IMG/VR virus record: IMGVR_UViG_3300020468_000037
Location: 1-31,796 of that record
Strand: one strand, 5' to 3'
Length of the DNA: 31,796 bases
From: a virus
Taxonomy: Duplodnaviria; Caudoviricetes
Made by a program: the position numbers and the translations under genes. The notes under the pieces are model-generated. The model made no database searches. It was given only the letters and a program-made list of their open reading frames with translations, and had not been told where the DNA came from. Of this stretch, positions 695 through 7,084 are shown one piece after another (the stretch's first letter is position 1; the number at the start of each line of letters is the position of its first letter).

Positions 695-723
695 TTGCTT
701 TTATTTTCAAACAATGTTATATT
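695..723 (+). promoter_or_regulatory. sigma70-type promoter (-35 TTGCTT, 17 bp, extended -10 TGnTATATT)
   Basis: TTGCTT at 695-700, 17-nt spacer, TG at 715-716, TATATT at 718-723, AT-rich upstream. The predicted +1 (~729-731) coincides with the 5' strand of the RNA closing stem. Confidence 0.7.
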
Positions 724-728
724 AATAT

Positions 729-960
729 TAACTTTAACACAAACTAAGAGAGTTATAAACTCTTAGCACTTGTGGCAGAACAACCCTTCGGCAGGGGGGT
801 AATGCACACTAAAGTCTTTTACGCGGCCAAGTGGCTAGGTTTAGGCGGAGGTGGTTGGAAGTAGGTATCATATCTAAACCTTGCAAAATTCAGATGTGAT
901 CTGCTTATCGAAAGTTGGAGGTGAGTTCACAGCAAGGCCTCCCAAGTAGTGTTATAGTTG
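729..960 (+). ncRNA. Candidate structured non-coding RNA (~230 nt, multibranch), family unknown
   Basis: The 5' and 3' ends pair (729-740/949-960, 11 of 12). Internal stems: 744-750/760-766, 767-772/828-833, 783-789/794-800, 834-845/873-884, 891-895/899-903, 915-921/938-945. It is GC-richer than its flanks and followed by CTCCCTTTTT. Confidence 0.6.
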
Positions 961-973
961 CTCCCTTTTTCCA

Positions 974-4243: not shown

Positions 4244-7084
4244 ATGGCTTTGGGAAGAATTTCAGGACCGCTTTTAAAAAGCAACTTACAGAGAACATCA
4301 GATCTAGCAGTAGAAACTAATCTATTATACATTGGTCATACTGATGGAAAGATTGGTATCAAAACAGTAACCAGGCCTAGAGACTTCACTATAGACGGTA
4401 CTGCTAAATTTAGAAATTCAAGTGCTGGACAACCAGACCTATACATTAATAATTCATTAAACTTAGGAAACTTAACTGTAAGTACAACCGGTATTGATAG
4501 TTTAACAGGATCTATATTCTTAAATTCTGCACAAGATATTACAGTAGGTGGATTGGCTACAAACCAAATAAAGATAGATGGCAATGCTATTTCAACTTAT
4601 AATACAAATAGTAACATTGATATTAGACCAAACGGTATTGGAACCAATGAAATTGTAACAGCAGGTAAAACTGTGAGAGTCGAAGGTAATACAAAAGCAA
4701 CTGGTAACATTACATTTGACGGTAGTGTTATCATTGCTGGTTCGGGCGATGAAGATAATTTTACAATCAATGCAGATATAGTTGGTAATCTAGTTCCAGA
4801 TGTAACAAACACATATGATTTAGGTGTAACTGGAAAACGCATGAGCCTTTATGCCGAAGAAGTTACAACTAATAGTGTGTTTACAGAAAATTTAATTTAC
4901 CAAGGCATTGATTTAACAAAACGTGTTGGTAACATATATGTTGCAACTAACGGATTAGATTCAAACGTCGGTGATACGGTACAAGGTGCAGTGCGAACTA
5001 TACAAAAAGCATTGACTATTGCTACCTCTGGACAAGTTATTAATATAGAACCTGGAGAATATGAAGAAGCATTTCCTTTACAAGTACCAGCAGGAGTAAC
5101 AATTAAAGGTAGAGACCTAAGAAATTGTATTATCAAACCAACAACTGCAACAAATGACAAAGATTGTTTCTTATTAGATGGTGAAACAACAGTAACAGAC
5201 GTATCAATCAAAGACTTTTATTATAACAGCACGGACAACACAGGATACGCATTTAGATTTAGAAGTGGTGCAAAGGTAACGTCAAGGTCGCCTTACATAA
5301 TGAACATAACTGTTATTACAAAAGGCAGTGTAACCAGTGCAAGTGATCCAAGAGGCTTCGCACAAGGAGACGCTGGTAAAGGTGTTTACGTAGATGGTGA
5401 AGTTTGTGACCATGATACAAACGAAGCAAGTATGTTATTCCATGCCGCAACATTTATTACACCTGGTGTAGATGGACTTACAATGACTAATGGTGTCAGA
5501 GTAGAATGGCTAAACTGTTTTACATACTTTGCAAACAGAGGAATATACGCAATCAATGGACCAGGCAGATGGAGAAGTGATTCTGTTTTAGTAAAAGGAG
5601 CAGAAATTAGATCAATAGGTAGTGCCTGTGTATATGGAAATATAGGTGCCGAGGCAGATGGTGCCAATTGTTTGATGTATCTAATACAACACAATATGGC
5701 TTACGTTGGTTCAGGCAAAGAAGTTACCAATGATAAAACTTTAATTAATCAAGCAAACGAAATAGTTGAAGCAAACAGCGGAAATGTTTATTATCAAACA
5801 GTAGATCAAAGCGGTAACTTTAGAGTTGGTGATGATTTTTTCATTGACTTTGAAAAAGGAACAACAAGCATAGATACAAGTTCCATTGCAGGTGGACTTA
5901 CAAGTTTAAAAATTACTACAGGTGGGCAAGAAACTTTATTAGACGGTTCAAAAGTCCAAACAGGAAACATTAGAGTTGCAAGTCCTAATAAAATTACTAG
6001 CACAACTGGTGATATAACATTTAACAGTATAACAGGAACACATAATATTAATACAAGTGTTACGGCTCCAAACATAACAACTGGAGGCAATGTAACTTTA
6101 GCAGGATCTTTAATTAAGTTTGGTGATCAACCAAGCGATACTATTGATTTCAATACACCTTTTGCACAAGACATTAAACCTAATACGCACATGGTTTACA
6201 ATTTAGGAAGTCCAAGCAAACGTTGGTTGAACAGTAACCTATCACAAGCACTTATTGATGATTATAGAATATATGATAATGTAATAGAGCAAACATCAAC
6301 AAATGCAAACATTGAATTACGTCCACAAGGCACAGGTAAAGTAGTATTTGACAACATCACTGCTAGTGAGAATACAATAGGAAGTACTGACAGTACTGAC
6401 ATTAGATTAAACGCAACAAAATTTACTATAAGTGCAACTGGGTCAGCAGAATTACCAACAGGAAGTACTGTTCAAAGAAAGAACCAAGTAGGGGATTTTA
6501 GATATAATGCAACCTTTGGAGAATTTGAAGGAAACAATGGCGGAACAGTATATTTTCCTACAATGCGTGATAGTGATAGAGACACTTACATCAACTTAAA
6601 TGATAACCAATTTAGATTTGTAGCAGATGGGCAACAAAACACCTTATTGAATCAACATATATTACAAACAACTAAATTTACAAGTGATAGTAAGTTCAGC
6701 ATTGACGGAAATACTATTACATCTGCAACACCAGACGCAGATATTAACTTTTTTGCAAATGGTTCAGGCGGAATACCATTTGAAGACATTGAATTCAAAG
6801 GTCAAACTGTAACAAATAAACTAAACACTCCATTTAGATTCGGATTGGCAGATGTTTACAGTTATTTGAAGTTTGATAACGTATATGGACTTGTTGTGCC
6901 AGCGGGTGTTAATGCAGATAGACCTAGTACGCCTGAACAAGGTACTACACGTTGGAATCAAGACCAAGGATATTTAGAAACTTGGAACGGAACACAGTGG
7001 GTTTTAGCGGCAGGTGGTGGTGCATCTGTGACGGAAGAATACGCACAAGATATCAACTTTTTGTGGGCAACTTTACTAGGCTAA
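4244..7084 (+). CDS. Large virion fibre/appendage protein with pectin-lyase-like beta-helix region (946 aa); paralogue of 7245
   Basis: YVATNG.D..VG...TIQKAL...I.PG.Y.E.FPL.VPAGV.IKG beta-helix entry motif; DQSGNFRVG; N.NI.(L/I)RP.G.G repeats; P.G....RP modules. Confidence 0.75.
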   Translation: MALGRISGPLLKSNLQRTSDLAVETNLLYIGHTDGKIGIKTVTRPRDFTIDGTAKFRNSSAGQPDLYINNSLNLGNLTVSTTGIDSLTGSIFLNSAQDITVGGLATNQIKIDGNAISTYNTNSNIDIRPNGIGTNEIVTAGKTVRVEGNTKATGNITFDGSVIIAGSGDEDNFTINADIVGNLVPDVTNTYDLGVTGKRMSLYAEEVTTNSVFTENLIYQGIDLTKRVGNIYVATNGLDSNVGDTVQGAVRTIQKALTIATSGQVINIEPGEYEEAFPLQVPAGVTIKGRDLRNCIIKPTTATNDKDCFLLDGETTVTDVSIKDFYYNSTDNTGYAFRFRSGAKVTSRSPYIMNITVITKGSVTSASDPRGFAQGDAGKGVYVDGEVCDHDTNEASMLFHAATFITPGVDGLTMTNGVRVEWLNCFTYFANRGIYAINGPGRWRSDSVLVKGAEIRSIGSACVYGNIGAEADGANCLMYLIQHNMAYVGSGKEVTNDKTLINQANEIVEANSGNVYYQTVDQSGNFRVGDDFFIDFEKGTTSIDTSSIAGGLTSLKITTGGQETLLDGSKVQTGNIRVASPNKITSTTGDITFNSITGTHNINTSVTAPNITTGGNVTLAGSLIKFGDQPSDTIDFNTPFAQDIKPNTHMVYNLGSPSKRWLNSNLSQALIDDYRIYDNVIEQTSTNANIELRPQGTGKVVFDNITASENTIGSTDSTDIRLNATKFTISATGSAELPTGSTVQRKNQVGDFRYNATFGEFEGNNGGTVYFPTMRDSDRDTYINLNDNQFRFVADGQQNTLLNQHILQTTKFTSDSKFSIDGNTITSATPDADINFFANGSGGIPFEDIEFKGQTVTNKLNTPFRFGLADVYSYLKFDNVYGLVVPAGVNADRPSTPEQGTTRWNQDQGYLETWNGTQWVLAAGGGASVTEEYAQDINFLWATLLG

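Follow-up and report, generated by a model that had tools for sequence, protein, structure and literature searches.

A virus sequence of jumbo phage type (IMGVR_UViG_3300020468_000037) encodes, downstream of its major capsid gene, a real, conserved and folded RNA of 231 nt at positions 730 to 960 of the window, by which we mean the whole stretch of 31,796 nucleotides analysed. All window features described below lie on its + strand. The RNA is very probably both a diverged, uncatalogued relative of manA (RF01745) with a replaced middle and a stand-alone gene. manA is described as a riboswitch candidate of marine phages and cyanophages (PMC2864571), with its role given as unverified in PMC9964418. 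Sixteen years after its description it has no known function, and it has recently been seen to form RNA-only cages in vitro. A first-pass annotation of the window had proposed a stand-alone structured phage RNA of an orphan class. The conserved promoter together with varying neighbours and orientations upholds the first part of that proposal, while synteny, architecture and model scores replace the orphan class with kinship to manA.

Results

Genomic setting of the RNA

The window record is a linear virus sequence with an estimated completeness of 16%. Its 5' end falls inside a gp23-type major capsid gene, of which the 3' part is present (3 to 599; PF07068, 7e-58; phrog_138), and structural genes lie downstream. 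The closest cultured capsid relatives, at 74–75% identity, are phages of 349–469 kb, and the source is a jumbo marine phage. Following the capsid stop codon are, in order, a hairpin, an AT-rich gap, the RNA segment, the late-promoter-like motif GATAAATA (974 to 981, by sequence match), a 140-aa ORF and a freshwater-2 RNA. The hairpin and its U-tract (621 to 646; stem 621–627/633–639) resemble an intrinsic terminator by sequence. Similar post-gp23 hairpins are present in most relatives shown, and the terminator scan did not list 621–646. Late-type GATAAATA/CTAAATA sites have six matches in the window, every one intergenic and on the + strand; the first-pass annotation had read all promoters other than that of the RNA as late-type.

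The 140-aa protein (987 to 1409) has 247 homologues and matches no family in Pfam or PHROG. An ORF can be opened from a TTG at 915, but ATG 987 is taken as the true start because the closest homologues are 139–142 aa long. The ORF serves as a marker of the slot in relatives, with an RNA of manA type or of group A adjoining it in 22 of 26 viral loci, and the protein may be regarded as a candidate partner of the RNA. The freshwater-2 RNA (RF02980; 1430 to 1513; 66.7 bits) is a separate, known element. Here (1405–1513), and likewise in many relatives, it stands directly after a late-promoter-like GATAAATA and ahead of a virion gene, a position from which it is likely to be a late translational leader.

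Fold and conservation

Relatives were gathered by pattern scans and profile searches over 517 loci. The close variants of the window RNA, group A, number 28 distinct sequences with a mean identity of 86%; 20 were aligned and 8 incomplete ones left out. Over the whole structure 98.1% of 1200 cells are paired in the 20 relatives, and two-sided changes occur at 20 of 60 pairs, the cells tallying sequences rather than evolutionary events. None of 500 shuffles reached four of the five measures used, the fifth (further pair types) being not above shuffles, and slid-structure controls paired at 35–50%.

The first-pass annotation had drawn a 12-bp closing helix around at least six further stems. The helix, P0, is present as 730–740/949–959 plus U729–G960 with one U-U mismatch, and at its position all 20 aligned relatives form a helix of 7–11 bp from quite unlike sequences. 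Inside it lie the P1 hairpin (744 to 766; 744–750/760–766), with two-sided change at five of seven pairs, and P2 (768–772/943–947), which closes the multiway junction, is 100% paired and covaries at three of five pairs. P3 (775 to 805; P3a 775–777/803–805, P3b 784–788/795–799) also covaries, and its internal loop GAAYAA...UAA (778–783 and 800–802) is invariant apart from one Y. The central domain (807 to 853) consists of P4a (807–809/851–853), P4b (814–817/843–846) and a hairpin (825–828/833–836). It is followed by the P8 domain (855 to 915), which carries an AGUA/GAA motif invariant in all 20 group A sequences and a group A-specific insert (871–890); the base of P8 (864–866/907–909), of uncertain register, reaches just 67% pairing. 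The 3' hairpin P9 (917 to 942; 917–921/938–942) is 100% paired, covaries and aligns with the manA-type P9. The inner stems hold up in the relatives, P1, P2, P3a, P3b, P4a, P4b, the hairpin and P9 being 98–100% paired with at least one two-sided change each, and many unpaired bases are invariant in group A.

The segment is GC-richer than its flanks (44%, with 27% on the upstream and 37% on the downstream side) and holds no credible ORF, the longest entirely within the RNA being 30 aa, both as first described. Folding energy by itself gives weak support that varies with the chosen ends. Against shuffles it is weak for 725–970 (z −1.66; 12/200) and better for 729–960 (z −2.99; 2/200), whose ends were chosen after the helix was seen, and the reverse strand gives z −1.95. 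It is the relatives, and not folding energy, that decide that the RNA is real. The minimum-energy fold of the single sequence is contradicted by covariation in P2, P3 and P8. An extension of the 838–846 pairing with 810–817 or 873–875 was dropped, RNAalifold showing 814–817/843–846 to covary, and mimicry of a tRNA D-arm by 825–836 was rejected, given that this stem covaries in the manner of an ordinary hairpin. As the first-pass annotation had stated, the segment is neither tRNA nor tmRNA (ARAGORN 0, Rfam none), and a scan of 50 loci from groups A, B and C returned 0 tRNAs.

Promoter, 3' end and expression

A sigma70-type promoter is predicted at 695 to 723, with a −35 box TTGCTT (695–700, matching at 3 of 6 positions), a 17-nt spacer and an extended −10 element TGn-TATATT (715–723; hexamer 718–723), which would place +1 near 730. 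The scan tool gave no listing for it. The upstream alignment covers 18 of the 20 group A relatives, all of which retain TTG-17-TATATT/TATAAT (TTGAC in 11) around a spacer of varying sequence, so that the host-type promoter first read in the window is kept in boxes and spacing. Early expression, as first suggested, may be predicted from this promoter type. The U-run noted after the helix is present at 966–970 but not conserved, a count by eye giving five or more T in 5 of 20 relatives, and the scan called no terminator there; a conserved terminator is not supported.

Part of the stretch occurs in 14 RNA sequencing runs, selected for containing it, of which eight were examined, all as contigs and without a DNA control. 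Four studies each gave a single near-identical contig restricted to the RNA (744–953, 744–943, 755–946 and 752–949), and a fifth metatranscriptome contig covers 753–846. Contigs in three of the eight runs reach farther upstream (598–1492, 678–938 and 708–895) and, by crossing the predicted start, weigh against our preferred explanation. As contigs show neither strand nor ends, they are compatible with a discrete RNA and nothing beyond. No splice joint occurs at the RNA in any contig examined. One metatranscriptome contig, with a loose end at 868, belongs to a divergent variant of group A, so that RNA libraries contain more than a single variant.

A sister group in Pelagibacter phages

A sister group, B, comprises 62 distinct variants, with 90 viral stretches holding the B pattern, and has no match to Rfam at threshold. 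A covariance model from 44 group B RNAs scores the window at 70.2 bits, and the central domain is replaced in group B as in group A. The RNA of phage 023Pt_psg01 scores 240 bits, and that of the cultured Pelagibacter phage HTVC008M 169 bits (locus L518, 2486–2690; KC465899.1, about 5025–5230). The latter is preceded by a perfect TTGACA-17-TATAAT, and its promoter and 5' half are overlapped by an annotated hypothetical protein, AGE60342.1, which is probably a spurious ORF. At one group B locus a neighbouring gene has 41 matching records, 36 of them from Pelagibacter phages. One further pattern scan yielded mostly chance matches plus two new group B RNAs. Three loci in GC-rich sequence, L087, L118 and L139, matched by chance and were left out, and the C profile, which contained two of them, was not used. 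Neither the window RNA nor the divergent L432 had a real match among cultured phages by blastn. An exact-pattern scan of GTDB genomes, with a pattern that misses HTVC008M-like variants, gave 62 matches, none extending past the anchor.

Kinship to manA

The position after gp23, marked by the 140-aa ORF, defines a genomic slot. Among 80 loci fetched by capsid protein, group A occupies it in 2 and a different RNA in 10, three of which exceed the manA threshold (55.7–79.9 bits); the resulting 12 of 80 includes many incomplete loci in its denominator. When the 140-aa ORF was used to fetch loci, 26 were obtained, with group A in 9, a manA-type RNA directly before the ORF in 13 and neither in 4. Six manA-type RNAs tested ahead of this ORF score 36–51 bits on RF01745.

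Model R1, a covariance model of 15 slot manA-type RNAs obtained via proteins, none of them found with the window's RNA, places its top hit over the 31.8-kb window at 733–958 (21.4 bits; runner-up 12.9). P2, P3, P8 and P9 are matched and about 70 central bases skipped, the P4 domain (807 to 853) remaining unaligned. The nominal E of 4.5e-5 is too optimistic because AT-rich noise is overscored, 240 hits being returned in the window at E up to 10. Over 30 other loci each of the best 14 R1 hits falls on an RNA of group A, of group B or of true manA, the last scoring 30.4 and 24.5 bits. At E up to 1 the model misses RNAs of both groups, 4 of 14 in group A and 3 of 12 in group B. Model R2, run against 10 loci, recovered 4 of 8 canonical manA-type RNAs, weakly. 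RF01745 itself, with a gathering threshold of 55.2 bits, has no match to the window RNA (729–960) even at E 10, and over 560–1100 Rfam gives nothing but weak hits to the capsid terminator, in line with the earlier failure to recognise a class. It does touch two of five divergent group A loci (L409, 24.4 bits, E 0.033; L408, 22.9 bits, E 0.028) and the HTVC008M RNA (25.9 bits, E 0.0037).

With manA, the RNA shares a length of about 200 nt, a 5' hairpin, the closing stem P2 round a multiway junction, P3 with its GAAYAA...UAA loop, the base of P4, P8 and P9, the L3–L8 and L8–L9 complements, an occurrence in marine phages and, in related phages, the post-gp23 slot. The kinship is drawn from this slot synteny, the shared architecture and the model scores. 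The RNA differs in that the window has no hit and its relatives reach 23–26 bits against 55.2, and in that P5, P6, P7 and the L5–L7 pair give way to one tetraloop hairpin, which has a covarying contact of its own. The group A insert adds two further complements, and the 5' UTR position on metabolic genes from which manA is known is not found here. Slot manA-type RNAs do keep three P4 hairpins, with L5–L7 68% and L3–L8 83% paired. Since membership is defined by a P4 junction with P5 (GUGGU loop), P6, P7 (ACCA loop) and the L5–L7 pair, which the RNA lacks, it was not filed as RF01745. Helix numbers are our own, matched to the text of preprint 10.64898/2026.07.01.735769.

Further elements were seen in related loci. 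An enlarged manA-like RNA at L101 (1302–1566, − strand; 28.3 bits on RF01745), with about 90 extra central bases, is a further variant. The manA-type RNA at L016 (3710–3994; 42 bits) has a tRNA within 6 bases downstream, and tRNA processing could generate its 3' end. In related jumbo phages glutamine riboswitch aptamers (RF01739, 47–60 bits) are located 3' of the capsid terminator and 5' of the manA-type RNA, ahead of small ORFs (L005, 3681–3730; L008, 4076–4122; L038, 3658–3705; L044, 4090–4137; L064, 3654–3701).

Long-range pairs

Loop L3 (790–794) is complementary to 901–905, 895–899 to L9 (927–931) and 823–824 to 831–832. Group A adds 838–842 with 876–880 and, from the insert, 881–884 with 932–935. 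These pairs give no covariation of their own in group A because all are invariant, and 901–902 has a competing local pairing (892–894/900–902). Group B, in which 61 of 62 variants parsed and one did not, is more informative. L3 pairs with the strand before the P8 3' arm in all 61, with three pair types; the adjacent strand pairs with L9 (J8–L9) over at least 5 bp in 53 of 61 and varies in step; and the base before the hairpin pairs with the third loop base (flank–tetraloop) in all 61, again with three pair types. Such covariation reads the same for pairing in cis and in trans. Correspondences between the groups were drawn by hand because the joint alignment A5 is too gapped for cross-group pair counts. 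The flank–tetraloop pair, formed across a 4-bp stem without a linker, looks strained in cis.

Discussion

Our preferred reading, held with about even confidence, is that of a conserved manA-related RNA gene that acts in trans and joins copies of itself through its loops. Host sigma70 polymerase would transcribe the RNA alone, starting near 730 and early in infection, to give a stable product of 200–230 nt whose ends would be protected by the closure of P0. The strand 895–905 would then pair side by side with L9 and L3, and some L3/L9 contacts and the 823–824/831–832 pair may be intermolecular, as contacts are in the solved manA oligomers, resulting in an RNA-only assembly, closed or finite, whose geometry would be unlike those published. 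In the cryo-EM work of bioRxiv 10.64898/2026.07.01.735769, L3–L8' and L8–L9' are contacts between manA molecules, and 8-, 10- and 60-mers are built through L5–L7' plus L8–L9', or L5–L7' plus L3–L8' and L6–P6'. The cages are reported in vitro only, and the term 'in vivo' is absent from the preprint text available. Two published intermolecular contacts are kept here, the one common to both pentamer types is lost and a covarying pair that looks strained within one molecule is gained, from which our best guess, an evenly balanced one, is that the RNA self-assembles into a different oligomer. The assembly may act in trans on a host factor, as its multivalent scaffold or as a decoy for it, a cellular role that we put forward tentatively; no partner molecule was found.

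The phage-encoded ornate RNAs ROOL and GOLLD, described as building RNA-only cages via evolutionarily conserved contacts (bioRxiv 10.1101/2024.12.08.627333), may provide a working model. They are likewise ornate phage RNAs with no function assigned in that account, but are several hundred nt longer and often near tRNAs, compared with 231 nt and no Rfam match here. The literature searched, with few subscription papers covered, contains no description of this manA variant. PMC10690425 reports 8495 viral candidate RNAs of 29–151 nt, and its supplements may hold fragments of the motif.

A stand-alone manA relative that stays monomeric, with intramolecular long-range pairs, and whose partner in trans is a host protein or small molecule, would satisfy the same evidence from fold and context, and is an unlikely though serious alternative. 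Assembly may indeed be lost, as the L5–L7' contact of both solved pentamer types is absent, and the many invariant unpaired bases also count in favour of a monomer. Against a monomer, both retained contacts are intermolecular in the manA structures described in the preprint, and the flank–tetraloop pair over its short stem would seem hard to form within one molecule.

A cis-regulatory leader or riboswitch for the downstream gene, as originally proposed for manA, is improbable. PMC2864571 (Weinberg 2010) lists manA as cis-regulatory, a gene for an ssDNA-binding protein follows several group A RNAs and that of HTVC008M, no conserved terminator lies 3' of the RNA and glutamine riboswitches are located near the same slot. 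In the sample of loci in which promoters and neighbours were read, however, the gene 3' of group A RNAs changes between the 140-aa ORF, the ssDNA-binding protein, ClpP and an 87-aa ORF, and a promoter-like site separates RNA and gene in the window, in all four divergent loci aligned and in HTVC008M. The group B RNA of 023Pt_psg01 is antisense to all 14 annotated neighbours, and in similar phages the orientation is antisense at L094 and sense at L086. Neither a terminator nor a ribosome-binding site overlaps the fold. Varying neighbours and orientation argue against a cis-leader and fit a portable gene that brings its promoter along. Genes for a porin and for ClpP, both phage-borne, were observed beside group A RNAs (L102, 2066–3001; L432, 517–1170). 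The RNA likely acts in free form as a self-pairing structural molecule instead of switching a gene.

That a separate new RNA class has become manA-like through convergence would accord with the missing RF01745 match, the third of the molecule unaligned by R1 and the low cross-model scores, but is very improbable given the shared order of P1, P2, P3, P4, P8 and P9, the loop words, the long-range contacts and the genomic slot. Slighter still is the prospect of a ribozyme or selfish mobile RNA cassette of no benefit to the phage, for which patchy presence (12/80 capsid loci), several sites, both orientations and dense pseudoknot-like pairing might speak, and against which stand no match to ribozyme families, no flanking mobility gene in the contexts read and no splicing-out joint at the RNA in the contigs examined.

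The reading of a self-joining, trans-acting RNA would have wider consequences. It is conceivable, if doubtful, that groups A and B represent a second manA class, ranging from jumbo myoviruses to small SAR11 phages, in which the interface common to every solved manA cage has been given up and a new one would build an RNA-only particle of new geometry in infected cells. In that case manA in its entirety would count among the structural RNAs with which phages act in trans, rather than among riboswitches.
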